From contig CAITMK010000012.1 of assembly GCA_903893485.1 (NCBI GenBank), positions 18,708-82,707 on the forward strand: a stretch of DNA of 64,000 nt. Direction: 5' to 3'. The DNA is from Candidatus Magasanikiibacteriota bacterium. GTDB lineage: Bacteria; Patescibacteriota; Patescibacteriia; Magasanikbacterales; 2-02-FULL-50-9b. This document shows, piece after piece, positions 4,435 to 64,000 of this stretch; the first letter of the stretch is position 1, and the number at the start of each line of letters is the position of its first letter. The translations under genes and the position numbers were made by a program. A model generated the notes under the pieces. It made no database searches, was not told the DNA's origin, and saw only the letters and a program-made list of their open reading frames with translations.

Positions 4435-4440
4435 AAAAAT

Positions 4441-4479
4441 ACCGGATGGCGCACGAGTTATGTGCGAACATCCGGGTTG
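4441..4479 (-). terminator. Rho-independent terminator for the minus-strand GC-rich cassette A gene
   Basis: accggatg...catccggt stem, followed by a T7 run when read on the minus strand. Confidence 0.6.
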
Positions 4480-4496
4480 TGGCCAAGGCCGATGGC

Positions 4497-4850
4497 TCAG
4501 GTGATGATCCGTTCGTTGGTGACCCAGTAGAGCACGCGCGCCCATTTGGACGACGCGTACATGAGGAAGAAACACAGCAACGCGATCGGCAGTTGCCAGA
4601 TCAAAGCGCAGCAGCCAACGGCCACGAGGAGCCAAATCGCCAACATGGCAAAGCCGTTGTTTTGCAGTTCGTGCATGATATTCCAGCCGCACATGATGCC
4701 GCCGAACAGCCCGACCGCTTTGCGCAGTTCCGGAATGTCGTCGACCGTCATGTGTTTGGTGGTCATCATGATCATGTACACAATCACGATGCCCGTAAGG
4801 CCAATAAATCCGTCCCGCAAAAAGCGGTCCACCTTCCGATACAATTGCAT
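4497..4850 (-). CDS. small integral membrane protein (118 aa, ~3 TM helices), GC-rich cassette A
   Basis: Start MQLYRK sits 5 nt behind a GGAGGAAGG Shine-Dalgarno. Hydrophobic stretches IGLTGIVIVYMIMM, AVGLFGGIMCGW and FAMLAIWLLVAVGCCALIWQLPIALLCFFL. Local GC is ~60% against a ~42% background. Confidence 0.55.
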   Translation of the reverse strand: MQLYRKVDRFLRDGFIGLTGIVIVYMIMMTTKHMTVDDIPELRKAVGLFGGIMCGWNIMHELQNNGFAMLAIWLLVAVGCCALIWQLPIALLCFFLMYASSKWARVLYWVTNERIIT

Positions 4851-4960
4851 GCCTTCCTCCCGAGGTTCCCGCCCAAAATGATTTAAGGGGGAAAGCCATT
4901 GTCTCACATCTGTGGGCGTTGTCAAGAGTGGTACTTTTTTGCTACTGTGTAAGTACAAAT

Positions 4961-5434: not shown

Positions 5435-5473
5435 ATTGACGGACGAGGTTTTCACCAGTAAGATACCCACAAT

Positions 5474-6883
5474 ATGAATAAGCCCGTAGTCATTATCGGT
5501 GCCGGCCCGGCTGGCCTTACTGCCGCCTCCGAGCTGGTGGATCGCGGCGTCCCTGTGATTATCCTGGAAAAAACTGGGCGTGTTGGCGGCATCGCCCGCA
5601 CTGACGAATACAAGGGATACCGCTTTGACATTGGCGGCCACCGTTTTTTTACGCGCGTGCCGTGGGTCATGGAATTTTGGAAAAAAATAATGGGCGACGA
5701 TTTTTTACGCCGTCCGCGCCAAAGCCACATTTATTATCGTCGCGAATTTTATACGTACCCAATTAAACCATTCGAAGCGCTCCGCAAATTTGGGTTCAAA
5801 GAATCGGTTATCGTAATGTGGAGTTTTGGTAAGGCACAATTGTTTAAGCGCCCAACCGAAGAAACATTTGAAGATTATATCGTTAATCATTTTGGCGAAC
5901 GATTATTTCATCATTTTTTTAAATCGTACACCGAAAAAGTGTGGGGAATTCCAACGAGCGAAATCCGCGCCGAGTGGGCAGCGCAGCGTATCAAAGGCAT
6001 GAGTATTTGGGGCATGTTAAAGTCCGCGCTTTTGCCAACAAGCAATAAATTTACATCGCTCATAGAAGAATTTTATTATCCACGGCTTGGTCCGGGCCAA
6101 ATGTGGGAAAAATTAGCGGCCAAACTTTTGGTCAGCGGTTTGGTTACATTGCATTACAATGCAGAGCCAACAATTTTGCATCACGAAAATGGTGAAGTCA
6201 CCAGTGTGACATATAAAATCGGAAAAATTTTACATACCACAGAATGTCGCGCGGTAATTTCAACCATGCCGCTGCGCGAATTGTTTCATATTTTTTCGCC
6301 AGCGTTGCCGCCAGATGCAATTACTGCCGCAGACCGATTGCATTACCGCGATTTTTTAACGGTTGCACTTATCATTAATAAGGCCGACATGTTTCCAGAC
6401 AATTGGATTTATATTCACGATCCAAATGTGCGCATGGGCCGCATTCAAAATTTTAAAAATTGGTCGCCAGAATTGGTGCCAGATCAAACTAAAACTTGTT
6501 TGGGTTTGGAATATTTTTTGTTCGATACCGAAAAAATGTGGCGTATGCCTGATCATGAATTGGTAAATATGGCCGCGCAGGAATTGGTGCGAATTGGTTT
6601 GGCAAAGCGGGCCGAAATTACGGATGGCTGCGTGGTGCGTATGCCAAAAGCATATCCAACCTACGATCCAGATTACGAAGCAGCAATGCCGCAAATTCGT
6701 GCGACGCTTGCAGAATTTAAAAACTTGTTTCCGGTAGGCCGCAACGGCATGCACAAATATAACAACCAGGATCATGCTATGGTTACGGCAAAATATGCCG
6801 TTGAAAATCTGTGCGATAATGCGGGCCACAACATTTGGGAAGTAAATGTTGAACGCGTATACCACGAACAGACAACGAAGTGA
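5474..6883 (+). CDS. FAD/NAD(P)-binding oxidoreductase (amine-oxidase/PPOX-like fold), 469 aa
   Basis: N-terminal dinucleotide-binding motif VVIIGAGPAGLTAA...ILEKTGRVGGIARTDEYKGYRFDIGGHRFF. Confidence 0.6.
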   Translation: MNKPVVIIGAGPAGLTAASELVDRGVPVIILEKTGRVGGIARTDEYKGYRFDIGGHRFFTRVPWVMEFWKKIMGDDFLRRPRQSHIYYRREFYTYPIKPFEALRKFGFKESVIVMWSFGKAQLFKRPTEETFEDYIVNHFGERLFHHFFKSYTEKVWGIPTSEIRAEWAAQRIKGMSIWGMLKSALLPTSNKFTSLIEEFYYPRLGPGQMWEKLAAKLLVSGLVTLHYNAEPTILHHENGEVTSVTYKIGKILHTTECRAVISTMPLRELFHIFSPALPPDAITAADRLHYRDFLTVALIINKADMFPDNWIYIHDPNVRMGRIQNFKNWSPELVPDQTKTCLGLEYFLFDTEKMWRMPDHELVNMAAQELVRIGLAKRAEITDGCVVRMPKAYPTYDPDYEAAMPQIRATLAEFKNLFPVGRNGMHKYNNQDHAMVTAKYAVENLCDNAGHNIWEVNVERVYHEQTTK

Positions 6884-6887
6884 TATA

Positions 6888-6916
6888 TTGACGCGCATTC
6901 ATAAAAATGCTAACGT
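6888..6916 (+). promoter_or_regulatory. sigma70-like promoter TTGACG-17-TAACGT for cassette B
   Basis: Hexamers sit 17 nt apart immediately after the stop of the upstream gene. GGAGG Shine-Dalgarno at ~6943-6947. Confidence 0.4.
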
Positions 6917-6952
6917 ATTCATCATGTGGCGCGACCACGATGGAGGTTTCTA

Positions 6953-7708
6953 ATGGATTTTGAACGGTCTCATCAAATTCGCCTTGCGCTCGAAGCTGCA
7001 TTTGTGGCAGCGCAAGGCAAACCTGTGGCAATGATCGTGGGTATCGGTGACGTCGGCAAGGGTGTTGCGGCAATGATTCGGCGCATGTCGCCCTTGCATC
7101 ATCTAGTCCTGGTGAACCGGGGCGCTCAGCGGCTTGCCGCGGTTCGTCTCGATCTGGATCTCAGCGACACGCCAGGCGGGCCAATCAGCACCATCGAGCT
7201 CGATCCGGGCAACCCGGCCGAACTTGATGTGCTCAAAGGCTGGCTGCAGCAGACGGTGAATCAAATTGATTTACTTGTATTGGCTGCGGGCTGCGCGGTG
7301 CCGGATGAGGGTAGCGAGCCAGCGTACGCGGCGAATCGCCCAAACTGGCAGCTCAAGACCAGCGTCATCGACGCGGTCGCGCAGTACGTCCACCACCTCG
7401 TTGTTGTGGGGTCCATGGTCACGCATTTGCCGGAGGCGGATGTACAGAGCCAGATCGGCTATCGCACGAGCATGCGGGAGCTTGAGACTCGCGTGAGTCA
7501 GCTGCAGGTTTGGATGCGTGGCGAGAATGTCAATCCATTCCTGGCTGAGCACGTGTTCGTCTGGCCGTGCCAGCTCGTCCAGGGCGCGACCGCCGAGAAG
7601 TACAAGGGTCTCGGTTTCGTGCATGAGAGTCAGGAAATTTGGACGCCTCAGGCGCATGCCGAGGCGACGCTCTGGCCTTTCATCCGTGGGTGGTGGCCGC
7701 TGCAGTAA
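6953..7708 (+). CDS. hypothetical NAD(P)-binding Rossmann-fold protein (SDR-like), GC-rich cassette B (251 aa)
   Basis: GGAGG Shine-Dalgarno 6 nt upstream of the ATG at 6953 (the ORF track starts at an in-frame GTG at 6926). Glycine-rich AMIVGIGDVGKGVA motif and an IDLLVLAAG (NNAG-like) segment. ~63% GC. Confidence 0.5.
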   Translation: MDFERSHQIRLALEAAFVAAQGKPVAMIVGIGDVGKGVAAMIRRMSPLHHLVLVNRGAQRLAAVRLDLDLSDTPGGPISTIELDPGNPAELDVLKGWLQQTVNQIDLLVLAAGCAVPDEGSEPAYAANRPNWQLKTSVIDAVAQYVHHLVVVGSMVTHLPEADVQSQIGYRTSMRELETRVSQLQVWMRGENVNPFLAEHVFVWPCQLVQGATAEKYKGLGFVHESQEIWTPQAHAEATLWPFIRGWWPLQ

Positions 7709-7736
7709 CGGACACCCTTTGTGTCCAACGTCCGTA

Positions 7737-7770
7737 TGTTGCCAGTTTGGCAGCGTGCGGCGTTTTTTTA
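7737..7770 (+). terminator. putative terminator closing cassette B
   Basis: Short gcca/tggc stem followed by gcgtgcggcgttttttt (T7). Confidence 0.35.
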
Positions 7771-7788: not shown

Positions 7789-8451
7789 ATGACAGAACAA
7801 AAATATGCAGTTGTAACGGGCGGCTCTGAAGGTGTTGGATTTGCCGTGGCGCAAATGCTCGCAGGCCATGGAATGCATGTAATCCTTTTAGCGCGCGACA
7901 AAGAAAAATTAGCTGCAGCTCATACGGCGCTCGGTGGCGGCGAAAATATTTCTGTTTTTAGCGTTGATGTTTCAAACGAGGGTGCGATTGCTGAGGTAAA
8001 AAATTATATCTCCGTTGTGACTGGCCAAATCGATGTATTAGTTAACGCAGCCGGTACGTTTCGTTGGGATCCGTCCGATATTAATTTAATGACACTGAAT
8101 GCTGATAGTAAAGAATTCATACTTCACGCGTTTCACGATTTGATTATTCCAGGAAGTTTTGTAATAAATATTAGTTCGCAAGCAGCGCTATTTGCGCCGG
8201 AAGATCCACGTCGCACGGGTGAAGAAGAATATGTTGCGTCAATGCAGCGCGTCGATGCTTTGTCAGCAGAATTTGCAGCGAAACATCCCGGAGTTCATGT
8301 GCATATTTCTCATCCACCACTGATGCGCGGTAAAATTGCGGAATCACAATTTCGCGGGCGTCCTGGCTTTGAAGATATAAATTTTGATACGCTTCCGGGT
8401 CCAGAAATTGTTGCCGATGAAATTGAAAAAGTCATTTTTGGAACGGTGTGA
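7789..8451 (+). CDS. SDR family short-chain dehydrogenase/reductase
   Basis: MTEQKYAVVTGGSEGVGFAVA is the TGxxxGxG cofactor motif; NAAG region; ~220 aa. Confidence 0.7.
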   Translation: MTEQKYAVVTGGSEGVGFAVAQMLAGHGMHVILLARDKEKLAAAHTALGGGENISVFSVDVSNEGAIAEVKNYISVVTGQIDVLVNAAGTFRWDPSDINLMTLNADSKEFILHAFHDLIIPGSFVINISSQAALFAPEDPRRTGEEEYVASMQRVDALSAEFAAKHPGVHVHISHPPLMRGKIAESQFRGRPGFEDINFDTLPGPEIVADEIEKVIFGTV

Positions 8452-11965: not shown

Positions 11966-13393
11966 ATGGAACACATCTCCCCATCAATTTTTTATCAGTA
12001 TTTTACGTGCCCGCACTGGCCGTGGTTTGAGCGTTTTGGCGACGAAACAAAACGGGGTGAATTTGGCGAGCTTCAAAAAAAGTTACTCGAACAGGGCGTG
12101 GCGAATGAAGAAAAATTCATGGCGGAGTTTACCAATGAAAAACAGGTGGTCACGATTGTGGCGGCAAATTGGCAGCAGGGATTGGAACAGACCAAAAAGG
12201 CTATGGCCGCTGGTGCAGACTTTATTTATCATGCGTATCTCCAGGATCGCACGTATCAGGGCATACCGGATTTGCTCATGCGTGTGGAAGGCAAAAGCAA
12301 ATTTGGCGCGTGGCAGTACGAACCTGTTGATATTAAATCTGGCTATGAATTGAAAGATGAATATAAATATCAGCTCGTGTTGTACGCGCTTTTGCTGGAA
12401 ATTGCGCTGGGTGTTCGCCCAAAGCAAGGGCATATCATCACCGCTTCACACGAATTTATTTCGTTCCCCGTTGATAATTTCATGGAGAAATTTTTTGATG
12501 TTTTAGAAAAAATCGAAGCAATTATTGGTGGCGAAAAGCCACCGCTGCAGCTCACCAAATCCTGCATGAACAGCCCATGGTATGCGTGTTGTGTTGAACA
12601 GGCTGAAGCGACCGACGACATCGCACTTTTGTATAAAGTCGATAAACGCGCCCTTGGAGCGCTGCACGAAGCGGGAATTAATACCGTCGAAGACGCCCGC
12701 CACATTGATCCAGAAATATTAGGCGACTCAATTCCATTTTTAAAAAAGGGTGGATTAGAGCGCATGAAAATGCAAGCAGAATCATTGAAAACAAAAAAAA
12801 TAATTTTGCGTAAACCTGTAAAAATGCCAACGGCCGCAAATATTGTGCATTTCGATATCGAAGGCGATCCACTTTTAGGACTTGAATATTTATTTGGATT
12901 TTTAATAGAAGGCAAAAATGGCGCGCCTGATGAATATAAGGCATTTGTTGCAGAAAAACCCGAAGACGAACGCAAAATGTGGCGTGAATTTTTAGATTGG
13001 CTCGCGGGCTTGCCAACAGATATGGTGATTTTTCATTATGCAACCTACGAAAAGTCGCGCCTGACCATGCTTGCACGCCGCTACGGTCGCGACATGTCGG
13101 AAATAGATCATGTAATCTTGGCCGCGTTCGCCGGCAAACTTTTTGATCTCAATGACATCGTAAAAGATAATTTTGTTTTCCCCTTATATTTTTACGGCCT
13201 CAAACAAATCGGAAAATTTCTTGGATTTCATTGGGATAGCGCCAAAGCTGGTGGCGCACAAAGTATTTTTTGGTATGAAGAATGGCTCAAAACAAATGAT
13301 CGTGAAATTCTAAATACGATTATTCAATACAACAAAGACGATGTGCGTGCGACAAAGTTTTTAAAGGATTGGATTGTGAATTATAAAGAATAA
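11966..13393 (+). CDS. RecB-family (Cas4-like PD-(D/E)XK) nuclease with a C-terminal RNase H-like 3'-5' exonuclease domain (TM0106-type)
   Basis: N-terminus YQYFTCPHWPW plus CMNSPWYACC give a Cas4-like 4-Cys cluster. PD-(D/E)XK elements GIPDLL / EPVDIKSG / YQLVLY. Later IVHFDIEGDPL...YLFG resembles a DnaQ-like exonuclease I motif. Confidence 0.55.
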   Translation: MEHISPSIFYQYFTCPHWPWFERFGDETKRGEFGELQKKLLEQGVANEEKFMAEFTNEKQVVTIVAANWQQGLEQTKKAMAAGADFIYHAYLQDRTYQGIPDLLMRVEGKSKFGAWQYEPVDIKSGYELKDEYKYQLVLYALLLEIALGVRPKQGHIITASHEFISFPVDNFMEKFFDVLEKIEAIIGGEKPPLQLTKSCMNSPWYACCVEQAEATDDIALLYKVDKRALGALHEAGINTVEDARHIDPEILGDSIPFLKKGGLERMKMQAESLKTKKIILRKPVKMPTAANIVHFDIEGDPLLGLEYLFGFLIEGKNGAPDEYKAFVAEKPEDERKMWREFLDWLAGLPTDMVIFHYATYEKSRLTMLARRYGRDMSEIDHVILAAFAGKLFDLNDIVKDNFVFPLYFYGLKQIGKFLGFHWDSAKAGGAQSIFWYEEWLKTNDREILNTIIQYNKDDVRATKFLKDWIVNYKE

Positions 13394-16510: not shown

Positions 16511-16562
16511 ATAAAAAATGCCTCCAGTAACCTTCCGAAATTAAACGGCTGGTTTCTGGAGG
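16511..16562 (-). terminator. intrinsic terminator read on the minus strand, possibly bidirectional for fba
   Basis: cctccag...ctggagg stem followed by T6 on the minus strand. Confidence 0.6.
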
Positions 16563-16992
16563 TCTTGTGACTTGTTAGTCTTTGGTATCGTCAACCTATC
16601 GGCTGAAAATCCCATTAACACCCATTTCCGCTTTGTCAAAGGCGGATTTTCCCCATCTGTTATTATCACCACGGACGCAGCGATCTTTCTGTGGGAGGTG
16701 TGAGGACGCACACCATGCATCTCTGCTTCATTTTTTATTCCGCAGTAAGCGCGGAAAAGGAGTCGTCGGGTATTGTACCCGCTGACTATACCTGGTAACC
16801 CTCCGCTCCCTACTCTCCCTTGGTTGATACGCCAAGGTTTTCAGGTTAAGAAGTTGGGCTTTGGCATCAGCGTAGCGCTGACAAACTGTTGGCCAAGAGC
16901 TGCGGATATGGCGCTCAATCCGGCATTACGCCAGGTAACCCCACTATCGCACGCATGCGCGTGCAGTTAACGGCCCTAAGGCAGGTCAACTT
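16563..16992 (-). ncRNA. candidate ~480-nt structured non-coding RNA of unknown class
   Basis: No ORF >70 aa on either strand. A minus-strand TTGACAAAA-17-TATTTT promoter lies at plus 16999-17027 and the terminator at 16511-16562. Multiple perfect local hairpins (gcacgcgcatgcgtgc, cgggtattgtacccg). GC is elevated relative to flanks. Confidence 0.4.
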
Positions 16993-16998
16993 GTGTAT

Positions 16999-17027
16999 AA
17001 AATATCAAAAGACGGTGATTTTGTCAA
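16999..17027 (-). promoter_or_regulatory. sigma70-like promoter gggggTTGACAAAA-17-TATTTT driving the candidate ncRNA
   Basis: Reverse complement of 16999-17027. Same 'TTGACAAAA' -35 context as the cassette C, E and H promoters. Confidence 0.45.
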
Positions 17028-20908: not shown

Positions 20909-20952
20909 ATTTTATAATTTATTGAGAAATTATAGCACAGGTGGGGCGGGTC

Positions 20953-20982
20953 TTGACAAAAAAGCCCAGATATGATTAAATA
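20953..20982 (+). promoter_or_regulatory. sigma70-like promoter gggtcTTGACAAAAaagccc ... TTAAAT for GC-rich cassette C
   Basis: Consensus -35 flanked by the gggc/gccc inverted repeat; the -10 match is weaker. Confidence 0.4.
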
Positions 20983-21093
20983 TTGAGGCTAGAGTGTTAT
21001 TTTAGGAGTAAGGCACACGGGCCCCAATCCAATTGTCCAGCAACCAGCGGTATTCCCCTCGATGGGTAACCCGCTTCAGCAAGGAGGTCAGTC

Positions 21094-21204
21094 ATGATCC
21101 AGTCCACCGCCAGCCCCGCGCGCAACCATGCGGGTGAGTTATCCTTCAAGCCATCGCTGCTGCAGTCCATCAACGGCCGCGCCGGGCGCCGCGCCAAGAA
21201 GTAG
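21094..21204 (+). CDS. hypothetical 36-aa peptide in GC-rich cassette C (MIQSTASPARNHAGELSFKPSLLQSINGRAGRRAKK)
   Basis: Perfect AAGGAGG Shine-Dalgarno 6 nt upstream of the ATG. ~68% GC island ending in a terminator at 21337-21373. The region could instead be a structured RNA. Confidence 0.35.
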   Translation: MIQSTASPARNHAGELSFKPSLLQSINGRAGRRAKK

Positions 21205-21336
21205 CCACGGCGACGCCGGCGGCTACTGACGCGCGGCGCCGACGAAGGAGATTCGCTTCTCCAACGCCGGCGCCTCGCAACCGCTGAAATCACCGTTTTC
21301 TTGCCGGCCAACGCCGACACGAGCACGAGTTTCGGC

Positions 21337-21373
21337 GCCACCAACCCACAGGGGCTCTGGTGGTCTTTTTTTA
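21337..21373 (+). terminator. terminator closing cassette C
   Basis: ccacc...ggtgg hairpin followed by T7. Confidence 0.45.
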
Positions 21374-24042: not shown

Positions 24043-24997
24043 CGGCACAAACGAAGAATGGGATGCGTTAGTTCTGAACGCTGGCGCGCAAAATAATGCG
24101 TGGGGTTTTGTGTTACAAAGCAGTAAATGGGCTGATGTATTGGTCGCGCGTGGCGCGCGTGTGGTGCGAATCGTCGATGAATCAAATCAGCCGTCGCTGT
24201 GGACATTGTTAAAAATTACGCACGGTATTTGGGTGTGGTATTGTCCAAAAGGGCCGATTGTATTGCCCGAACATGCAAATGAATGGCGCGCTCTTATTTC
24301 AGTTTTGCAGCACGAACGTCATGCCACGGTGCTTCGCATTGAGCCAACAATTGCTGCGCCAGAAAATTTTAAAAAAAGAAAATCAATTTCACCAACGCAT
24401 TCATTGATTACATTACTCGGAAATAATTTTGAATCTTTATTCAAAAGTTTTCACGAAAAAACACGATACAATATTCGTGTTGCAGAAAAACACGGCGTGC
24501 GCGCAGTACGATTGACCGGCGAGATGCTTCATCAGCAGCTCCATCGCATTTTGAGTTTGTATACGGCAACGGGCGAGCGCCATGGAATTTCTTCTATGCC
24601 TGCAGCGGAGCTTCGTGCGCTCGTTGCAACAGCGGACGTTTGGGTTGCCTGGTACGAAAATCGTATTATCGCGACTTCGTTTCATGTTGGATTTGGTGAC
24701 ACATATACGTATTTGCACGGAGCTTCATCGTACGATGACCGCGCACTCATGGGGCCGTACGCGTTACATGCGGCGGCAATGCAGTACGCAATTGAACAGA
24801 GTTTTGCACGGTATGATTGGTGGGGCGTTGCACCAGAAAACGATGAAACGCACCCACTCGCGGGCGTTACACGGTTTAAATTGGGTTTTGGTGGCAGCAT
24901 GGTAAGTGCGCCAGGAACATTCGATTTGGGCATTGACCGACTACGCTATTCTTTGTACACTTGGGGAGTTCGAGCGGCTAAACGCATGCGCTCGTAG
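24026..24997 (+). CDS. FemAB-family peptidoglycan interpeptide-bridge aminoacyltransferase-like protein (GNAT fold)
   Basis: C-terminal YLHGASSYDDRALMGPYALHAAAMQYAIEQSFARYDWWGV resembles the FemABX signature. Overlaps the ruvA 3' end in another frame. Confidence 0.5.
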   Translation: MAKKFSGTNEEWDALVLNAGAQNNAWGFVLQSSKWADVLVARGARVVRIVDESNQPSLWTLLKITHGIWVWYCPKGPIVLPEHANEWRALISVLQHERHATVLRIEPTIAAPENFKKRKSISPTHSLITLLGNNFESLFKSFHEKTRYNIRVAEKHGVRAVRLTGEMLHQQLHRILSLYTATGERHGISSMPAAELRALVATADVWVAWYENRIIATSFHVGFGDTYTYLHGASSYDDRALMGPYALHAAAMQYAIEQSFARYDWWGVAPENDETHPLAGVTRFKLGFGGSMVSAPGTFDLGIDRLRYSLYTWGVRAAKRMRS

Positions 24998-25059
24998 TAC
25001 AGTGGATAGTACGCTGGCCTCCGAAGCTGGAAACACAGGTTCGACTCCTGTCGGGCGCA
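24988..25059 (+). tRNA. tRNA-Arg (anticodon CCG)
   Basis: Cloverleaf by eye: acceptor GCGCTCG/CGGGCGC (one T·G pair), D-arm GTAC..GTAC, anticodon loop CTCCGAA, T-arm ACAGGTTCGACTCCTGT. The 5' end overlaps the last codons of the upstream CDS. Confidence 0.75.
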
Positions 25060-25062
25060 AAT

Positions 25063-34282: not shown

Positions 34283-34379
34283 TCCATAAAATAAAAAAAT
34301 CGCCGAGACGATTCCCGCGTGAGTCAAGCTCTCGCGAAAACCGTCCCGGACGATGGCGTGGTTGCACGCCTTGTGCGCG

Positions 34380-34832: not shown

Positions 34833-34970
34833 GGGTACCTCCAGGAAAGTTGTCACTGAGTACTCCTTAAACCGCAAAGGGCCGGGTTAAGGTTGCGGCA
34901 ACGCACCGCATGAAAGACAATATATCAGTCTGCGGGGTAGTCGTCAAGTATGTTATACTGTGGAATATTT

Positions 34971-36430: not shown

Positions 36431-36461
36431 AGTAGGAGGATTATAGCGGATGCGGCGGATC

Positions 36462-36490
36462 TTGACAAAACCGCTAAAACATGGTATGCT
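36462..36490 (+). promoter_or_regulatory. strong sigma70-like promoter gatcTTGACAAAA-17-TGgTATGCT for cassette E
   Basis: Consensus -35, 17-nt spacer, extended -10, followed by a ~95-nt leader with a hairpin. Confidence 0.55.
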
Positions 36491-36583
36491 GCTCGGTCTA
36501 GTTGAAAAGGGCTTTCCTAGCGGAAAGATTAGGCTTGTGGCAGATAAGTATTTGCTGCAAAACCCTCGTGATCGGAGGACAAG

Positions 36584-37291: not shown

Positions 37292-37312
37292 CGCAAACGT
37301 GCGCGGCCAATC

Positions 37313-37378
37313 GGCGTACAACATAGAGACTCGCACAGAAATTTCGTGCTTGAGACTCTGGTTGTACGCTGTTTTTTA
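37313..37378 (+). terminator. long-hairpin intrinsic terminator after cassette E
   Basis: gtacaacatagagactc...gagactctggttgtac stem followed by gctgtttttt. Confidence 0.6.
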
Positions 37379-37439
37379 TTTGACTGAAAAATGTAATTAC
37401 ACTAGGATTGATGAGGTTTCGCAACTTTTGGAGGATGTG

Positions 37440-38249
37440 ATGAAACAAGCTCAGATTAGGGATGATTTGCAACAAGCGTATTTGGAAACAATTGTGCTGG
37501 CACAACTGCTCGATGAAGGGTTTATTGGGCCGGCGAACTTGCTTCTTCGAGTTTTTGGTGCGTGCAAGGTGCCGCACAAAAACGCGTGGAGTGGTACGTT
37601 CGGAAATTCGCAGCTCTTTCAATTTGGTACAAATGGCCGTGCCCTGCGTTTGACCTTTACCACTACAATAACTGAAGCCAGTCTGATTCTGGACTGGACT
37701 TCAGATTATCAGGCGACAGAGCAGGACGTGGACCTGTGGTCACAGCGCGTGGAGCTCGGTTACGTCAGGTCTCGTGGTAAGTGGTTTTTTGAGACGAACC
37801 TCTCTGCCGACGGCTTTGGGGAATGGTTCGGTCGTCATGGTTCGCGCCTTCCAATTCCGGATTGGCATCACGACGATCCCATGCCCTGGCTTGCAATCAA
37901 CGCGGTCACACGTGGTTTCTTGCCCAAGAGGCCGGAAAGATTTGCACGCGCAATGGTCATGATTTTTTTGGAGGGAAATCAGACTGCGGATCGGTATCAA
38001 GCTGATCCGCTTACGGTGAGCGAGGCTACTGTTCTGAAGTCCATCGCGCATGCAGTCATGAATGGTAATCGGTGGATGGTTGTTCGGACGCGCGCCGGCA
38101 GACGTCTGGATTCGCAAGACGCACGGGATGCCCTTGATGTAATTATGGGGATCAAACCGCCTTTGGAGTGCTCCAGAGATTTGCTCGAATTCGTCAAGAT
38201 GATCTGTGGCGCTGCTGGCGACGCAAGCTTCGGCGGCCGCATTGTTTGA
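37440..38249 (+). CDS. hypothetical protein (270 aa), cassette F, tandem with E
   Basis: TTGACT-17-TAGGAT promoter at ~37380-37410. GGAGGA Shine-Dalgarno 5 nt before the ATG at 37440. ~53% GC. No recognisable motifs. Confidence 0.5.
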   Translation: MKQAQIRDDLQQAYLETIVLAQLLDEGFIGPANLLLRVFGACKVPHKNAWSGTFGNSQLFQFGTNGRALRLTFTTTITEASLILDWTSDYQATEQDVDLWSQRVELGYVRSRGKWFFETNLSADGFGEWFGRHGSRLPIPDWHHDDPMPWLAINAVTRGFLPKRPERFARAMVMIFLEGNQTADRYQADPLTVSEATVLKSIAHAVMNGNRWMVVRTRAGRRLDSQDARDALDVIMGIKPPLECSRDLLEFVKMICGAAGDASFGGRIV

Positions 38250-38336
38250 GGAAAACCAAAAACGCACCCCCGTTTGAGTCGGCCAAAATTTCTGGCGATT
38301 CGCGGGCGGTGCGTCTTTTATTTTGCAATTATTTTT

Positions 38337-40439: not shown

Positions 40440-40816
40440 AGGAGTGTTAAATTGATTTCTTTCTCTTTTCGTGGACACGCGTCGCATTCTCCTGCGAGAA
40501 TGCGCGCTCGGCCCCGGTTCGCCAGTTTTGCTTCGCAAAACACCATGCTGGCTCACCTGCGGATGGTCCACTAAAACAGAAAGAAATCGATTTTAGTGAG
40601 TATGAGTGATTAAATTTTTGAAATAGTGCTGAACTGGTCAAGTAAAAAAGGTGTGTCGCAAGGTTTATAAAAATCTATTGTGAGGGACCATCCGCAGCCT
40701 GAGCGGGCCGGAGTTTTGGCACGTAGGGCCAAAACGAGCGAGGGCGAGGCTGAGTGCAAATTCCCGCCGGGGAATTTGCCACGTGTCCTGAACATTAGAT
40801 TTTTATAAACCGGCTT
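40440..40816 (-). promoter_or_regulatory. long structured leader/spacer between tRNA-Leu and rnj, with interleaved inverted repeats
   Basis: IR1 ggtttataaaaatct / agatttttataaacc and IR2 ctgcggatggtcc / ggaccatccgcag are arranged 1a-2a-1b-2b. Several perfect local hairpins are also present. Confidence 0.4.
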
Positions 40817-40903
40817 TGGTGCCGCGGGCGGGACTTGAACCCGCACACTCTTGCGAGCGCTAGCACCTGAAGCTAGTGTGTCTGCCAATTTCACCACCGC
40901 GGC
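40817..40903 (-). tRNA. tRNA-Leu (anticodon CAG), long variable arm
   Basis: Acceptor GCCGCGG/CCGCGGC, anticodon stem CTAGC/GCTAG with loop TTCAGGT, T-arm GCGGGTTCAAGTCCCGC, encoded CCA. Confidence 0.8.
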
Positions 40904-40967
40904 AGGGAGTGGATAGGAAACAAAAGTAGACCAAACTATAGCATACCAAGGTCGGATTTGTCAATTA

Positions 40968-54273: not shown

Positions 54274-55038
54274 ATGAAAAAACTCATCGCCTTATTGAGC
54301 ATTATTTCAGCATTTACATTTTGTTCAACCGCGCTTGCCTCTAATGGATATCCTGCACATACCTATACGTATGTGAATGATTTTGCCAAAGTGCTCACAC
54401 CAGATGACATTAATACATTGCAATCGCAGCTTTCAAAATTTGATACTGATAATGATGTTTCAATTATTGTGGCGACCGTGAATTCAATTCAAGATTATCC
54501 AACGGGCGACCAAACAATTGAATCATTTGGAATGAATTTGTTTAATAACTGGGGCGTCGGCAGCGCAAAAAAAAATAATGGCGTACTTATGTTGGTTGCG
54601 GTTAAAGATCGTAAAATTCGCATTCAACTTGGTTCGGGATACGGATCATCGTATGATGCTACGATGACGAAAATTATTGCGAGTGACATGTCGCCATCTT
54701 TTAAAGCGGGGCAGTTTGGTGCAGGCTTCAGACTCGGCGCTGCATCGGTTATGAATGTGGTGGGGGTTGCAAATCGTGTGCTAACACCAGAAGAGAAAAA
54801 AGCGGCAATGGTAAAAACTTATGTAGTCATGGGCGGTATCGCAATCTTATTGATTGTGCTTATTGCCGCGGCGATCTCCGCCTTTCGTTCGGGCAAAACA
54901 GGTTGGGGTTGGATATTTTTGGCAGCTATTGGCGCGATAATTTGGTTTTTATTTCGATTAATGCCAAACGGACGTGGTGGCGGTGGCGGATATGGCGGTG
55001 GCTCGTCATCGGGTGGTGGTGGATCAGGTAGTTTTTAA
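54274..55038 (+). CDS. TPM-domain (YgcG-like) protein with C-terminal TM helix and Gly-rich tail
   Basis: TPM-like core YVNDFAKVLTP...VSIIVATVNSI...GVLMLVAVKDRKIRIQLGSGYG, then a TM helix and GGGGGYGGGSSSGGGGSGSF tail. TGTATACTG box upstream. Confidence 0.55.
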   Translation: MKKLIALLSIISAFTFCSTALASNGYPAHTYTYVNDFAKVLTPDDINTLQSQLSKFDTDNDVSIIVATVNSIQDYPTGDQTIESFGMNLFNNWGVGSAKKNNGVLMLVAVKDRKIRIQLGSGYGSSYDATMTKIIASDMSPSFKAGQFGAGFRLGAASVMNVVGVANRVLTPEEKKAAMVKTYVVMGGIAILLIVLIAAAISAFRSGKTGWGWIFLAAIGAIIWFLFRLMPNGRGGGGGYGGGSSSGGGGSGSF

Positions 55039-55076
55039 AAAAACAGCCGACCTTGCGTTTCCACAAAATCGGCGGG

Positions 55077-55700
55077 TTAGGGGTTTGGCACTTCCGGCCG
55101 GCCCAAAATAATGTCTGAGTGTGCCCAATCGATGCGCCAGCCGCGTAGATAAACAGCTCCGAGAATTCGTTGCAGAATTTCCTTTGCTCGTTGATCTTTT
55201 GGATGTCTGAGCGAAGTAATCCGAATCACGAAATGTTCGCGCCGCGATGGTTTGCTTAGGGTCTCTACGGTAATTTGGGCGCAACCGATCTTTGCCCACT
55301 GAGGTTGGAGTTCTGGGGCGGCGTAACGGACGCTCACCGGTATGCGGTTAGCCACAGCCTCGACATCGGCAAGACTTGGCATAGGGAAACGCGTCGTATC
55401 GGCCTGTGCAAAATGGTACACGTCGGTGTTTACTTTTTTGAGGATGGCAATTTCTACCGGGACTGATCCTGGAAGAAGGATGATTTCGTCAGAGAAGTCT
55501 TGTGACTCAACATCGCTTGGCAGGCCAACCTCGACACACTTTGCAAAGCCGGCCCTAATAAATGGAGCCTGCAGGTGCGGCGGAATTGCCGAGAGCAACT
55601 TTGAGTTGTCGCCTGGTGCGCATGGTTCGCGCGTTGCAAAAAATTGCTTTAAAGGCACCTCGCTTGAAGCGGGCACCACGAAATAGGTACGCCAGTTCAT
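55077..55700 (-). CDS. hypothetical protein (207 aa), GC-elevated cassette G
   Basis: AGGAGGTG Shine-Dalgarno 5 nt before the ATG, with TAACGT immediately after the cca stop. ~54% GC. No recognisable motifs. Confidence 0.45.
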   Translation of the reverse strand: MNWRTYFVVPASSEVPLKQFFATREPCAPGDNSKLLSAIPPHLQAPFIRAGFAKCVEVGLPSDVESQDFSDEIILLPGSVPVEIAILKKVNTDVYHFAQADTTRFPMPSLADVEAVANRIPVSVRYAAPELQPQWAKIGCAQITVETLSKPSRREHFVIRITSLRHPKDQRAKEILQRILGAVYLRGWRIDWAHSDIILGRPEVPNP

Positions 55701-55725
55701 GAGACACCTCCTGAACGCAACGTTA

Positions 55726-57204
55726 CTACTGTTTTTTCAAAAAGTCAATCGCCTGGAGTTTAGTTGAAAGTTTGCCACTGAGCTGCGCTTCGCGAAGTAA
55801 TTCCAAAAGTTCACCAACGCGTGGGCCCGGTGCGATTTTAAGAGCCGACATAATTTCAGTGCCGTCTAAAAGTGGCTCAATTACTTTTTGCATGGGACCG
55901 CGGCCACGCAGTAATTTTTTGACGCGCGCCAAAACAGCATGCACATGTTTTTTCTTTGGAAAACCAGCAGATGGAATGGTTGCGGAGCCATCGCTAAAAA
56001 GCATGGTCAATAATTCGCGGCCCGCATTTAGGTCACGCACAAAATATTTTTCAATCGTAGTTTCTTTTAAATCTGCAACATCAGCTTGCACCGCGAGTAG
56101 GTGATGATCGATGAGCCACACGGCCAAATCAACATCAACATTACAACCTTCCACGGATGATAGTTTTAAGCGTTCCATGATTTGCCGACCAACGCGCCCG
56201 CCAACAACATCGTGGCCGGTGAATCGAATGCGATCGACACCGTCTTTTTTTGGTGTTTGAATGGTTAATGGTTTTGCGACGTCGTGCAAAAGTGTTGCAA
56301 TGTACTGTGTTGGCGTTGCTTTGAGCGGCGCTTTATAAATGCGCGGCAGCAATTTAATAAAGCGGCGATATGGCGTGCCATGCAAATTTGAAACTGCAAC
56401 AACGGTATGTTTCCACACGTCGCCTTCGCTATGATAATTTTTTGGCTGTGGGCATTTGTGCATTGTCAAAAGTTCTGGTGCTACTGTGGCGAATGCACCA
56501 AACTTATCCCAGAGTTCCATGAATCGCGCCGGATTTGCAATCAACGATTTCATAAATTCACGACCAACTAATTCGTATGGCACCAAGCGTTCACCGTTTT
56601 TGGTAACGTCATTTACGCGTGGCATTAATTTTTTCATGGCAGCGGCAGTTTTTGGTTCAATTGCAAAATTCAGCTGGCACGCAAAGCGCAACCCACGTAA
56701 AATGCGCGTGTAATCTTCTTGAAAACGTTCGGCCGGCTTGCCGACCGCGCGCAATTTTTTGGCGCGCAAATCAGCGCGGCCGCCAAAGGGGTCGATGAGT
56801 TTATCGGTTGCCAAATCAAGTGCAATTGCATTAATGGTAAAATCTCGACGTGCTAAATCTTTTTCGATTGGTAGGGTGTGTGCGGCATAAACTTCAACAT
56901 CGCGATAGGCGCCCGTGCCACCTGGAACTTCGGTGCGGGGAAGCGCGATATCGATTTGCGCGCCGCCTTTTTGCGGCGCAAATTTAATTACACCAAACGT
57001 TTTGCCAACCACATCAACGGATCCATAAGTTTCCAAAAAAGAAATCAAATCTTCGAGTGGTACGCCGCGCACCACTAAATCAACATCCTTACTTGGGCGA
57101 CGCAGCAAAATATCGCGCACCATGCCGCCAACCAAAAAAATCTGCGCATCAGGATATGCGCGCAGCAGCGGTTTTGCCCATGAAAATTTAAGTCCATGTT
57201 TCAT
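55726..57204 (-). CDS. cca: CCA tRNA nucleotidyltransferase / poly(A) polymerase family with HD domain
   Basis: Pol-beta-like motif IFLVGGMVRDILLRRPSKDVDLVV, followed by a head domain and an HD-like C-terminal region. Confidence 0.75.
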   Translation of the reverse strand: MKHGLKFSWAKPLLRAYPDAQIFLVGGMVRDILLRRPSKDVDLVVRGVPLEDLISFLETYGSVDVVGKTFGVIKFAPQKGGAQIDIALPRTEVPGGTGAYRDVEVYAAHTLPIEKDLARRDFTINAIALDLATDKLIDPFGGRADLRAKKLRAVGKPAERFQEDYTRILRGLRFACQLNFAIEPKTAAAMKKLMPRVNDVTKNGERLVPYELVGREFMKSLIANPARFMELWDKFGAFATVAPELLTMHKCPQPKNYHSEGDVWKHTVVAVSNLHGTPYRRFIKLLPRIYKAPLKATPTQYIATLLHDVAKPLTIQTPKKDGVDRIRFTGHDVVGGRVGRQIMERLKLSSVEGCNVDVDLAVWLIDHHLLAVQADVADLKETTIEKYFVRDLNAGRELLTMLFSDGSATIPSAGFPKKKHVHAVLARVKKLLRGRGPMQKVIEPLLDGTEIMSALKIAPGPRVGELLELLREAQLSGKLSTKLQAIDFLKKQ

Positions 57205-60284: not shown

Positions 60285-62735
60285 ATGTTAATTTCCAAAG
60301 AATGGCTTTCTGAATACGTCGCATTGCCCGCCGAAATTTCCGCGGCAGAATTAGCATTTCGATTTTCTTTGGCCACTGCCGAAATCGAAGGTGTGGTTGA
60401 TGCGGGTGCTGCATTTGAAAATATTGTTGTCGGCGTTATCGAATCCGTTGGCCCGCATCCAGGCGCTGATAAATTACGCATTTGCAAAGTTGATGTTGGC
60501 ATGGATACGCCGGTACAAATTGTATGCGGCGGATCAAATTTGGTGCCGGAACAAAAAGTTGTTGTCGCGCTTCCGGGCGCACGCGTGCGCTGGCACGGGG
60601 AAGGTAATTTAGTCACACTCGAAAAAACAAAAATTCGCGGCGAGGAAAGTATCGGTATGATTTGTGGCGCAGATGAAGTCGGTCTCTCGTCAGAATTTCC
60701 ATCCAGCGGCGAAAAAGAAATTGTCGATTGTTCATCATGGAACGTGCCAGCGGGTACGCCACTTGCCGAAGCGCTTGGCCGCACCGGTGTGGTTTTTGAA
60801 ATCGATAATAAATCACTTTCAAACCGCCCAGATTTATGGGGCCATATTGGTGTTGCGCGCGAATTTGCTGCACTGCTTAAAACCTTTACCATGTTACCGC
60901 AGCCTCCAGTACTTGCGGCGGGCGATTCAATTTATTTAGACGTGACTGTTGCAGATTCGGTGCGCGTACCACGATATACCGCAGCGGTAGTAACCGGTGT
61001 TGCCGCGCTTCCGGCAGCAGATTTTATTCAAAAACGTTTGACCGCTTGTGGCGTCGCCTGCGTGAATGCTATTGTTGATACACTGAATTACGTCATGCTC
61101 GAAACCGGTCAACCTATGCACGCATTTGATTACGACAACGTAAAAAATGCGGATGGATCAGTAACGCTCGAGGTTCGCCCGCATGGCAGCGACGGAAAAT
61201 TCACGACATTTGCAGGCACACAAATTGCGCCGGCAGCAGATGCGCTCATGATTACAAATCCTGCGGGGCCGCTTGTGGTTGCGGGTATTATTGGTGGCGC
61301 CGCATCGGGCGTGAATGCACAAACGCACACCGTTGTTTTGGAATCCGCTGTTTTTAATGCGCAGCAAATTCGTCGCACTTCAAATGCGCTTGGTATTCGT
61401 ACCGAAAGTTCAACGCGTTTTGAAAAGGGATTAGATCCAGCAGGCGCATCATTTGCATTGGCACGCGCCATTGAATTACTCCAAAAACAATTTCCAAATT
61501 TGCAGGTCGCAAGTAATTTAGTTGATTTGCAAACAACGGCTGCTCACGAACGTGTACTCAGTGTTTCAGAAGAGTATATTCACAACATGCTTGGTATTTC
61601 ATTACCAACAGAAGTCGTGCTGCACATTTTAAATAGTTTAGGTTTTGGTGTGGCACACGAAGGCACGGCATATATTATTACCGTGCCAAGTTTCCGTGCG
61701 AAAGATATTGTGGGGCCTGAAGATATTGTAGAGGAATTGGTGCGCCTCTATGGTTATGAGCATATTCCGGCTCGCTTGCCGCATATCACGGGTCGCGTAA
61801 TCGAACCAAATGGCGCGGATATTTTGGGCAAAAAAATAAAATTGCATACCGCACTTGCATCGCGTTTTCACGAAATAAATTGTTACGCATTTATTCGCGG
61901 TGAGTCTGCAGCGGCGCTTGGTTTGCAGTCAGAAAATTTATTGCAGCTTGCAAATCCACTTTCAACCGAACGTCCATTTATTACGCCAATGTTGAAAATT
62001 AATTTAATGGAATCAGCGAGCGCCGCGGAGCACACGCGCGATACCGTTGCACTGTTTGAAATCGCACGCGTATTTGCGCCACACACGGCCGCGCCATTTA
62101 TTGGCGGCGAAGTTGCAAAATCGATTCCGATGCAGCCACTGCACGCGGGATTTATTTTTGCTGATCGCGCGCAGAAAAATTCTTTCGGCGTTTTGCGCGA
62201 TGTAATTTTTGCAGCCGCGCACAGTGCTGGCTATACACTTACGCTGCGCACACCGGACGCACCATATAACTGGCACAAAAAACAGGTAAGCGCGAATATT
62301 TTTTGTGGTACCCAGCATGTTGGATCCATTGGTGCTGCAAATAGCCGCACGGCGCGCGCTTTTGGATTCGTCTACGAAACAATTGTTGCTGAAATTGATT
62401 TGGAATTATTAGCGGCATGTCCTGCTACGCCACGCGTTTTGGCCGAAGTAAATAATTTCCCCATGTCAGTTCGTGATATTGCATGTGTCGTAGATGAAAA
62501 AATAAAATATGAACAACTTGCCGCAGCTGCACGCACTGCCGCGCCAGAAGTTGTATTAGTTGAAGCAGTAGATTTATATCGCAGCGCTACAACGGTTGGT
62601 GAAAATAAAAAAAGTATCGCCATTCGCGTGGGATACCAAAGTGAAACGCACACACTTACGAGTGAAGAAATCGAAACCGCTCATGCAAAAGTTTTGGGAG
62701 CGCTGCAAACAAATGTTCAGGCGCAGATTCGATAA
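60285..62735 (+). CDS. pheT: phenylalanine--tRNA ligase beta subunit
   Basis: MLISKEWLSEY N-terminus, tRNA-binding, B3/4 and B5 domains. An alternative ATG at 60270 overlaps pheS. Confidence 0.9.
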   Translation: MLISKEWLSEYVALPAEISAAELAFRFSLATAEIEGVVDAGAAFENIVVGVIESVGPHPGADKLRICKVDVGMDTPVQIVCGGSNLVPEQKVVVALPGARVRWHGEGNLVTLEKTKIRGEESIGMICGADEVGLSSEFPSSGEKEIVDCSSWNVPAGTPLAEALGRTGVVFEIDNKSLSNRPDLWGHIGVAREFAALLKTFTMLPQPPVLAAGDSIYLDVTVADSVRVPRYTAAVVTGVAALPAADFIQKRLTACGVACVNAIVDTLNYVMLETGQPMHAFDYDNVKNADGSVTLEVRPHGSDGKFTTFAGTQIAPAADALMITNPAGPLVVAGIIGGAASGVNAQTHTVVLESAVFNAQQIRRTSNALGIRTESSTRFEKGLDPAGASFALARAIELLQKQFPNLQVASNLVDLQTTAAHERVLSVSEEYIHNMLGISLPTEVVLHILNSLGFGVAHEGTAYIITVPSFRAKDIVGPEDIVEELVRLYGYEHIPARLPHITGRVIEPNGADILGKKIKLHTALASRFHEINCYAFIRGESAAALGLQSENLLQLANPLSTERPFITPMLKINLMESASAAEHTRDTVALFEIARVFAPHTAAPFIGGEVAKSIPMQPLHAGFIFADRAQKNSFGVLRDVIFAAAHSAGYTLTLRTPDAPYNWHKKQVSANIFCGTQHVGSIGAANSRTARAFGFVYETIVAEIDLELLAACPATPRVLAEVNNFPMSVRDIACVVDEKIKYEQLAAAARTAAPEVVLVEAVDLYRSATTVGENKKSIAIRVGYQSETHTLTSEEIETAHAKVLGALQTNVQAQIR

Positions 62736-63878
62736 TTATCCGCGCATTCTTGCACGCAAAACATTTGTAACTTTTTGTACCGCGTCGCCAAGTGAATAGC
62801 CGGGCATTGGAGAAACCATGCGGCTCGCGCTGCCACTGCCACCTGAAAAACCAGATGAAAGCCCTGCTGCATTGTAGGGCTTTTGAGTATCAATCAAAAC
62901 ACGCACCTCATGTGGCGCAACAGGCGATTCATAAACCAACGCAAAAACTTTGGCATGAGGCGCAGTAGAAATTAATTCTTCAACCAGCGCATCCATCGCG
63001 TGCTCACCGGCGCCGGCGCGCGCAAAATCTTCACGTGTCAAAGTACTCCACAGTAAAGGCTGTTGTGGGTCGGATTGTAAATTCGTGAGCGCGGCACCCC
63101 ATAATTTTAATGTTGCAACGCTGCGCTGACGATATAGTGCATGTACAATTTTTTCACGATCAGCGCCGGAGCCAATAAGCGCGCTTGCAGTTTGTAAAGT
63201 CCGCGCATTTACATTTGCTGTTTTAAAACTTTGTGTTGCCGCGATCATGCCGGTTAAAAGTAAATTTGCAATTGGGCCGGTCATAGTTGCGCCCGCTTCG
63301 GTCAAAAAATCATTAACCACTTCACATACACTGGTGGCGGTGATGCGCACATAATTTACATGCCCAAAAAATTCATGGGCCGGATCAGAGTTGATTGCTA
63401 AAATTGGCGCAGTATTAAAAAGTGCCGTGTTGCCCATGTACACACTACCAAGCGATGCCAAATCCGGTGCGCCAACTGCAATAATTGCATCATAGCGGAA
63501 TGCCGACGAAATGGTAGTAAGACCAGCCGGATCAATCACCCCATGCTGCGGCGTTACATATACGGTGAGCTGGCCGTTGTGATATTCGTGGCGCACGTGG
63601 CCTAAATTTTCCTCGCCAAGGGGCAGGGAAATCATGAATTCGTGCAAATTGCCGATTGCGCCTTTGACACTGGCGATTTCAGGCAAAAAGCTAAGATTCT
63701 CTGGGGCACTAAAGCTGGTGCTGACCACATCTACCGTTTTGCCCAGTTGCTTAATGTAGGCACCAACCGCCAAAGCAGCAGAAATCTGGTCAACCGTGGG
63801 ATTTTTTCGGGTCACCACAAGCACCGCATGGGCGGCGTCGATTTGCTGCTTTAATTGCTCGTGGGGCAGAAGGGCCAT
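62736..63878 (-). CDS. DHH/DHHA1-like (NrnA-like) protein with degenerate catalytic motifs
   Basis: Overall NrnA-like length and a C-terminal Gly-rich GFSGGSGS segment, but no clear DHH or DxD motifs. Confidence 0.3.
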   Translation of the reverse strand: MALLPHEQLKQQIDAAHAVLVVTRKNPTVDQISAALAVGAYIKQLGKTVDVVSTSFSAPENLSFLPEIASVKGAIGNLHEFMISLPLGEENLGHVRHEYHNGQLTVYVTPQHGVIDPAGLTTISSAFRYDAIIAVGAPDLASLGSVYMGNTALFNTAPILAINSDPAHEFFGHVNYVRITATSVCEVVNDFLTEAGATMTGPIANLLLTGMIAATQSFKTANVNARTLQTASALIGSGADREKIVHALYRQRSVATLKLWGAALTNLQSDPQQPLLWSTLTREDFARAGAGEHAMDALVEELISTAPHAKVFALVYESPVAPHEVRVLIDTQKPYNAAGLSSGFSGGSGSASRMVSPMPGYSLGDAVQKVTNVLRARMRG

Positions 63879-63926
63879 AATTTGGGTGATAGAGCATCTT
63901 ACCGAAATCGCTTAGATTGGTCAAGG

Positions 63927-63958
63927 GATTGACAAAATGAGCAAAAATCGATACAGTT
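63927..63958 (+). promoter_or_regulatory. promoter gggaTTGACAAAA-17-TACAGT followed by GGGAGG Shine-Dalgarno at 63984-63989; gene body lies beyond the window
   Basis: Same TTGACAAAA -35 context as cassettes C and E. GC rises toward the window edge. Confidence 0.4.
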
Positions 63959-64000
63959 CCGGCCGTCAGAGCAGTTAACTCGGGAGGCGAGCTGCAAAAA

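Follow-up and report, generated by a model that had tools for sequence, protein, structure and literature searches.

GC-rich, Shine–Dalgarno-led single-gene islets among leaderless-type core genes of a Magasanikbacteria chromosome

Introduction

Phage morons, as reportedly described by Hendrix and colleagues, are added genes of deviant composition, each with a promoter and a terminator to itself, that separate genes adjacent in related phages. Mixed modes of translation initiation are also said to be recognized by gene finders of the GeneMarkS-2 type, which reportedly find leaderless and Shine–Dalgarno (SD)-led initiation side by side in genomes of the Actinobacteria or Deinococcus type. Foreign DNA is more usually AT-rich. 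For genes of atypical composition there is the amelioration framework of Lawrence and Ochman (1997), as it is cited in PMC12455944. Here we describe a 64,000-nucleotide stretch of DNA, referred to throughout as the window, from a Candidatus Magasanikiibacteriota bacterium (GenBank assembly GCA_903893485.1, contig CAITMK010000012.1, positions 18,708 to 82,707 of the forward strand), in which GC-rich islets, A to G and the start of an eighth, H, each built around a single gene with a strong SD site, lie among core genes that lack such sites. An initial annotation had seen these islets as autonomous expression modules, repeatedly acquired and possibly forming one dispersed functional system. The reading that we favor, with a little better than even confidence, is that they are a resident, fast-evolving class of accessory genes with its own mode of expression, and not one functional system.

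The host is a Candidatus Magasanikbacteria (Magasanikiibacteriota) chromosome of the Candidate Phyla Radiation (CPR, or Patescibacteria): the relatives of its RNase J and tryptophanyl-tRNA synthetase (TrpRS) come from Magasanikbacteria metagenome-assembled genomes, with top identities of 74–77% and 73%, respectively, and the gene order UvrA...RNase J–TrpRS...glycosyltransferases is syntenic with these relatives. The same clade includes high-GC relatives of 58–67% GC. The core neighbors of the islets are YebC, RuvC, TrpRS, RNase J, UvrA, PheST and the CCA-adding enzyme. In the open-access text that was searched, no published description of such a pattern in Patescibacteria came to light.

The islets as a class of protein-coding genes

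GC-rich patches were located by a 150-nt sliding scan combined with statistics for each open reading frame (ORF), and SD sites were sought blind to annotation, as GGAGG or AGGAG with the start codon of an ORF 4–10 nt further on. The blind scan recovered all seven genes of islets A to G, six of them as ORFs of at least 100 aa and the other as the 36-aa ORF of islet C. Its remaining matches of at least 100 aa were an antisense ORF that is not annotated and two starts inside genes, a GTG in RNase J and an ATG in a 790-aa gene. None of the core genes in the window, operon-internal ones included, has GGAGG or AGGAG at this distance before its start. Ranked by GC content, the seven SD-led ORFs are the top seven of 57 (Mann–Whitney U = 350 of 350, p = 4e-9), and the 50 core ORFs have a mean GC of 0.45 and a mean third-position GC (GC3) of 0.39 (standard deviation 0.06, maximum 0.53).

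The sliding scan and the per-ORF values agree on GC-rich islets at the places where the initial annotation had put them. The contrast that it drew with a background of about 42% is real, although the background of the whole window is 46% and islets F and G stand out only modestly. The GC-rich stretch just before islet D turned out, by its Rfam match, to be the RNase P RNA gene and no islet (Table 1). The comparison of GC3 and codon usage that the annotation had called for separates the islets sharply from the core genes, F and G weakly so. GC3 exceeds first-position GC (GC1), which exceeds second-position GC (GC2), in islets A, C, D and E, and codon periodicity with an SD site at the proper spacing is found in A, B, D, E, F and G. 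The codons preferred in the islets are those of high-GC organisms (CTG/CTC, GCG, GGC, AAG, ATC), and core genes have A at a share of 0.28 of third positions, which falls to 0.15–0.25 in F and G and to 0.05–0.09 in A to E. Residue motifs are kept between islet orthologues. The islets thus read as real monocistronic protein-coding genes. The window also encodes dedicated decoders of CGG and CUG, namely tRNA-Arg(CCG) at 24987–25060 and tRNA-Leu(CAG) at 40817–40903; both codons are far commoner in islet genes than in core genes, CUG making up 49% of the Leu codons in the former versus 13% in the latter.

All seven islets are built alike, with a TTGAC(A/G/T) −35 box, a spacer of 16 or 17 nt (16 in A), a −10 hexamer and a hairpin followed by a T-run at the end (Table 1). 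The view that each is an autonomous single-gene module, with its own −35/−10 promoter, 5′ untranslated region (UTR), strong SD site and terminator, therefore stands at the level of sequence. The rise in GC begins at the SD site and coding sequence, not at the promoter. Islet E is divergent from the TrpRS gene, which is of the leaderless type, and has a conserved stem at the 5′ end of its UTR, while the −35 box of islet G is embedded in the codons for AIDFLKK with which the CCA-adding enzyme gene ends. In islet C the ORF has a perfect SD site, the predicted transcript is about 390 nt long and its GC-rich 3′ part folds only slightly better than shuffled sequence (z = −1.9); the product may be a small protein, an RNA or both. 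For islet H no start codon occurs in the 13 nt remaining before the window ends, and public gene calls place a 240-aa ORF with no Pfam match beyond that end.

Table 1. Islets A to H, with their predicted signals, and the two host RNA genes that share their −35 box (nucleotide positions in the window; CDS, coding sequence)
Feature	Position	Strand	Product	GC	GC3	−35 and −10 boxes	SD site	Terminator and other parts
Islet A	4436–4925	−	CDS 4497–4850, 117 aa, 3–4 hydrophobic helices	0.55	0.80	TTGACA 4925–4920; GACAAT 4903–4898	GGAGG, 5 nt before ATG	~4436–4478, hairpin and T-run
Islet B	6888–7769	+	CDS 6953–7708, 251 aa, degenerate Rossmann/SDR-like	0.60	0.69	TTGACG 6888–6893; 17-nt spacer; TAACGT 6911–6916	GGAGG 6942–6946	7732–7769
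Islet C	20953–21373	+	36-aa ORF 21094–21204	0.66	0.89	TTGACA 20953–20958; TTAAAT 20976–20981	AAGGAGG 21081–21087, after ~100-nt 5′UTR	GC-rich structured 3′ part of ~130 nt, then 21338–21373
Islet D	34292–34947	−	CDS 34380–34832, 150 aa, N-terminal signal peptide	0.65	0.87	TTGACG 34947–34942; TATATT 34924–34919	GGAGG 34842–34838	~34292–34345
Islet E	36462–37377	+	CDS 36584–37291, 235 aa, globular N-terminal part and Lys/Arg/Gly-rich tail	0.65	0.78	TTGACA 36462–36467; TATGCT 36485–36490	GGAGG 36574–36578	~37323–37377
Islet F	37380–38324	+	CDS 37440–38249, 269 aa	0.53	0.54	TTGACT 37380–37385; TAGGAT 37403–37408	GGAGG 37430–37434	~38262–38324
Islet G	55038–55748	−	CDS 55077–55700, 207 aa	0.53	0.52	TTGACT 55748–55743; TAACGT 55725–55720	GGAGG 55711–55707	~55038–55076
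Islet H (start)	63929–64000	+				TTGACA 63929–63934; TACAGT 63952–63957	GGGAGG 63982–63987	
RNase P RNA gene	33856–34255	+	RNase P RNA (Rfam, 125 bits); not an islet			TTGACAAAA 33819–33826		
tRNA-Leu(CAG) unit	40817–40964	−	tRNA-Leu(CAG); not an islet			TTGACAAA promoter 40964–40957		

GC-rich islets also bear long antisense ORFs, which are chance products of GC-rich DNA and are miscalled in public gene sets. At 35474–37336 on the minus strand of the window, public calls fuse TrpRS with an open antisense frame of islet E to give 616–620 aa, and in one related locus (L170, 544–1359, plus strand) the public call is the antisense strand of the E orthologue.

Core gene starts and the native promoter

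The neighboring genes had been described as SD-less and placed behind TGnTATACTG boxes, which is borne out: about 17 true core gene starts have a TATACT- or TATAAT-like box 7–11 nt, mostly 9 nt, before the ATG. A −10 box so close to the start codon makes it probable that the core mRNAs are leaderless, and the core genes and the islets would then probably differ in their mode of initiation, leaderless in the former and SD-dependent in the latter. In two high-GC relatives (L027 and L037) the core genes are likewise of the leaderless type, with a −10 box near the start and no SD site.

The TTGACA-type promoter is not a mark of foreign origin. The −35 box TTGACAAA also precedes the RNase P RNA, tRNA-Leu(CAG) and one unannotated, putatively structured RNA in the window, and since it drives RNase P RNA and tRNA-Leu, this promoter type is the host's own. 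The unannotated unit, of about 450 nt at 16535–17027 on the minus strand, has the −35 box TTGACAAAA at 17027–17020, a TATTTT −10 box and an intrinsic terminator. It contains no ORF of 80 aa or more and has no Rfam, tRNA or tmRNA match, and it folds much better than shuffled sequence (z = −3.9), making it a candidate novel structured noncoding RNA.

The islets have neither flanking direct repeats nor cassette ends in common, and the sole similarity from islet to islet lies in the promoter regions of C and E. The two regions (20942–20974 and 36451–36483), 76% identical in a 33-nt alignment that takes in GCGGRTCTTGACAAAA ahead of and over the −35 box, may share a regulator or an UP-like element.

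Islets in related genomes

Comparison with related loci (L-numbered stretches of relatives' genomes) covers islets D, E, F and G. Orthologues of E that are divergent from TrpRS occur in four genomes (L013, L170, L171 and L172). They share the TTGACAAA...TATGCTGCTCGGTC promoter, and conservation extends into the early 5′UTR (TTGACAAA-17-TATGCT GCTCGGTCTRGTT). The five E genes have a GC content of 0.62–0.70 and a GC3 of 0.77–0.92 within loci of 46–51% GC. They form a family with a common basic C-terminal tail, RRG...G(V/T)GK, and with two N-terminal types, one found in the window and L171, the other in L013, L170 and L172. Between the window and L171 the E proteins are 35% identical (E = 2e-30), against 74% for TrpRS of the same pair. 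The stem in the E 5′UTR (window 36491–36540, and L013, L170, L171 and L172) follows the pattern CGGTCTRGTT ... RACYRGNC and has a few compensatory changes across the five genomes; it could be a protective hairpin at the 5′ end or a regulatory site.

For islet G, one true homologue (P0014, in locus L169) emerged when 1.84 billion representative sequences were searched in full with HMMER. This gene lies directly after the CCA-adding enzyme gene of L169, with its −35 box again within the conserved AIDFLKK codons; the −10 box and GGAGGTG are kept as well, and similarity holds as far as the ATG and collapses beyond it. The G proteins are 33% identical against 82% for the CCA-adding enzyme, and the orthologue has a GC3 of 0.73 beside a host gene of 0.40. 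Because position, promoter, 5′UTR or SD site and GC-rich codon usage are conserved in other genera, we regard E and G as long-standing residents.

None of the related loci examined (L013, L016 and L170 to L174) contains islet D or F, and we take these two to be lineage-specific fillers of variable slots. The slot between RNase J and TrpRS holds an AT-rich HicAB pair and DoxX in L016, a DUF2268 gene in L172 and an AT-rich 370-aa gene in L173, and is empty in L174 and L020. The idea of repeated acquisition accordingly fits the pattern of D and F and fails for E and G, whose orthologues keep the same position, promoter, SD site and composition. The islet type of build, with −35 and −10 boxes, SD site, terminator and a GC3 above that of the host, recurs in further accessory genes of relatives (L015 8114–8626, L016 12910–13704, L172 13369–13998 and L173 11770–12609), and also in the high-GC, Paceibacteria-like L027 and L037, where RNase J is followed by an SD-led accessory gene. 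Beside the gene of this build in L016 (12910–13704, minus strand) lies a tandem paralogue with 47% identity (12121–12633, minus strand). The full-length, SD-led copy has a GC3 of 0.80 and the N-terminally truncated copy 0.60, which fits a decay of GC once a copy is no longer maintained. A blastn comparison of the islets with all fetched loci gave no match, as expected for A, B and C, since the fetched loci do not span their positions.

Searches for relatives of the islet proteins

The statement that the proteins belong to no recognized family withstood profile and sequence searches, apart from a weak signal for B. Scans of all islet proteins against Pfam, PHROGs, NCBIfam and PADLOC gave nothing significant except a weak short-chain dehydrogenase/reductase (SDR) or Rossmann match for B, which shares 31% identity along 81 aa with the SDR gene next to it (7789–8451); the one PHROG match of B (E = 0.049) is at chance level. 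No mobility, defense or phage domains were found in the islet proteins by these library scans, sequence and profile searches of the PDB returned no match, and tblastn against phage records and scans of IMG/VR found no relatives of B, D or F. Rfam, at gathering and at permissive thresholds, identified RNase P and three tRNAs in the window and nothing in the islets. The G profile gave a very weak SepF-like signal (E 0.2–0.3), a lead only. AlphaFold2 models of G, from a two-sequence alignment, and of F, from a single sequence, had a predicted local distance difference test score of 38 and were unusable. Word-indexed protein searches with E and F returned the query alone; the same kind of search missed the true 35%-identical E orthologue, which leaves the orphan status of F soft. 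The islet proteins have no similarity to each other and include no defense, phage or Pfam family, so that the suggestion of one dispersed functional system is rejected.

Other features of the window

Three further features were observed. Between islets A and B, at 5474–6883 on the plus strand, lies a gene for a 469-aa oxidoreductase of the FAD/NAD type, which has hundreds of non-CPR relatives of about 50% identity in metagenomes and no close syntenic relatives. Its composition is host-like and its start of the leaderless type; it may be an acquired gene. A Pro- and Arg-rich stretch of about 190 aa that extends RNase J at its N terminus (40000–40571, minus strand; local GC 0.58) is conserved in Magasanikbacteria relatives and absent from ordinary RNase J. 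Two terminator hairpins, at 2054–2085 and 3653–3684, are near-identical (AAAAAGCCCCGGAAACGGGGCTTTTTTG, 97%) and flank a gene for a 511-aa secreted protein (2105–3640, 38% GC).

Discussion

If the islets are indeed a resident class, their expression and history might be pictured as follows. Core genes would be transcribed from promoters of the −10 type placed 7–11 nt before the ATG, giving leaderless mRNAs without SD sites. The islet genes would instead use the stable-RNA type of −35/−10 promoter native to the host (TTGACAAA-17-TAnnnT), and their mRNAs would carry a 5′UTR of 25–110 nt, a strong GGAGG initiation site and an intrinsic terminator of their own. They fill variable slots between syntenic core genes, and their products (membrane, secreted, basic-tailed and SDR-like proteins and a small peptide) are lineage-specific, unrelated to one another and several times faster in their evolution than those of their neighbors. 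Ultimately they may stem from foreign genes captured from GC-rich, SD-using donors, with turnover of the slots as at D and F, and their GC-rich composition might since have been actively maintained, whether by selection (on the mRNA or the codons), by biased conversion or by alleles imported again and again.

The maintenance of this composition is the most puzzling part. Four-fold sites at conserved core gene residues are 42–51% identical between genomes, where about 25% is expected at saturation, corresponding to roughly 0.7–1.1 substitutions per site in a hand calculation of the Jukes–Cantor type. In two of three gene pairs (G against the CCA-adding enzyme, and E against TrpRS for the window and L171) the islet is closer to four-fold saturation than its neighbor, and in the third, L013 with L170, the raw four-fold identity of islet and neighbor is equal; the L170 E orthologue still has a GC3 of 0.92. 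With that much four-fold change, a passively fading signature of import should have decayed substantially. The UTRs are far less GC-rich than the third codon positions, and GC3 is not raised in the flanking core genes (TrpRS, RNase J and the CCA-adding enzyme). Taken together this argues for, though it does not prove, a gene-specific force that keeps the islets GC-rich.

Several points weigh against the reading as a resident class. Four-fold saturation is heavy and not full, and a slow fading of an imported signature might conceivably be at work in E and G. Islets F and G are only modestly GC-rich, so that high GC is a tendency of the class and not a rule. The promoters and terminators of the islets are matches to a consensus, and in a global scan such matches are no commoner than in shuffled sequence. 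The sample consists of one 64-kb window and about ten related loci.

Alternatively, foreign modules from high-GC, SD-using donors could have been inserted horizontally, recently and more than once, and the islets would show the composition of an import not yet ameliorated. Codon usage like that of high-GC organisms, the absence of D and F from related loci, the different cargo of the RNase J–TrpRS slot from genome to genome and the existence of high-GC relatives within the clade all speak for this, and the spread of GC3 from 0.52 to 0.89 could reflect differing ages. It is nevertheless somewhat unlikely: genes orthologous to E and G occupy the same positions in other genera, keep promoter and SD site, and retain a GC3 of 0.73–0.92 despite about one substitution per four-fold site in their neighbors by our hand estimate. 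The promoter type is native, the GC jump starts at the SD site and coding sequence rather than at the promoter, neither flanking direct repeats nor mobility genes accompany the islets, and no donor homologue was found in collections of about 1.8 to 5.8 billion proteins or in phage and viral collections. A third possibility is that the islets are hot spots of recombination, at which alleles are swapped through conserved flanks and GC is kept high by GC-biased gene conversion (gBGC) or by alleles from GC-rich relatives. The two N-terminal types of E, set on a shared promoter and a shared RRG...GxGK tail, do not neatly follow the TrpRS tree, and this poor fit leaves room for allele exchange; the greater approach to saturation in two of three gene pairs, with L013 and L170 equal, and the raised GC1 alongside GC3 point the same way. 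Against this, the neighbor-joining tree is poorly resolved, the flanking TrpRS, RNase J and CCA-adding enzyme genes show no raised GC3, and GC is much lower in the UTRs than at third codon positions. To our knowledge, a GC3 of 0.8–0.9 against 0.4 far exceeds the gBGC effects reported in bacteria, and we consider the hot-spot model distinctly unlikely.

It is extremely improbable that the islets are artefacts, either chimeras with a GC-rich organism or structured RNA genes with chance ORFs. GC-rich DNA does yield long chance ORFs on both strands, several of them miscalled publicly, the neighboring GC-rich stretch is the RNase P RNA gene, and islet C combines a very short ORF with a GC-rich, structured 3′ region. 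However, several independent assemblies, from other samples and other assemblers, show an identical islet arrangement, and synteny holds in relatives, so that an assembly chimera, raised as a possible refutation in the initial annotation, is rejected. Strong codon-position periodicity with properly spaced SD sites likewise led us to reject a purely noncoding nature for A, B, D, E, F and G, and the conserved residue motifs of orthologues and the lack of any Rfam match in the islets agree with this. Three narrower identifications were also tried and rejected: integron cassettes, as there is no shared end repeat and each unit has its own promoter; prophage morons, given the housekeeping neighbors and no significant PHROG match; and parts of a single dispersed system, as the islet proteins lack similarity to one another.

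A bolder form of the resident-class reading, which we think unlikely as it stands, would be a selectively maintained regulon in Magasanikbacteria, perhaps in Patescibacteria more widely: a dedicated class actively held at a GC3 of about 0.8–0.9 in genomes of about 45–50% GC and initiating through SD sites and 30S subunits, as opposed to leaderless mRNAs and 70S ribosomes. Were this true, the islet mRNAs might survive or be translated where the AU-rich, leaderless transcriptome is not, for example during nuclease or toxin activity or in a certain symbiotic state, and the islet proteins would be under diversifying pressure.

Seen more broadly, the resident class forms one of two clean tiers in the genome of an uncultivated CPR lineage, with probable initiation mode, composition and evolutionary rate going together. 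Old orthologues of "foreign" composition challenge the routine reading of atypical GC as a sign of recent transfer, and islets E and G offer a natural test between amelioration on the one hand and selection or biased conversion on the other. The class also flags the lineage-specific genes (secreted, membrane and basic-tailed) that are most likely to act in the interactions of the organism. On the practical side, GC-rich islets cause systematic misannotation in public gene sets, in the form of antisense ORFs and the 616-aa "TrpRS" fusion, and word-indexed homology searches miss true orthologues.

Comparison with known systems

Like islets and orphan genes attributed to horizontal transfer, the islets described here combine atypical GC and codon usage with the lack of a recognizable family, variable slots and a patchy distribution. 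They differ in being GC-rich, in having no signatures of mobility and in that two or more of them keep their position and regulatory DNA across genera while their composition is still atypical. They resemble integron cassettes as single-gene modules of diverse function; unlike these they are dispersed, have their own promoters and show no attC-like repeat, integrase or array. The likeness to phage morons lies in autonomous single-gene units of deviant composition, inserted between genes that are adjacent in relatives, as RNase J and TrpRS are in L174 and L020. The setting is a different one, a cellular chromosome with housekeeping genes and neither prophage context nor phage homologue. Finally, as in genomes of mixed initiation, many genes have a −10 box near the start and no SD site, and a minority have a canonical SD site. 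What sets this window apart is that the SD sites are confined to monocistronic, GC-rich, lineage-specific genes, so that initiation mode, composition and evolutionary rate go together.

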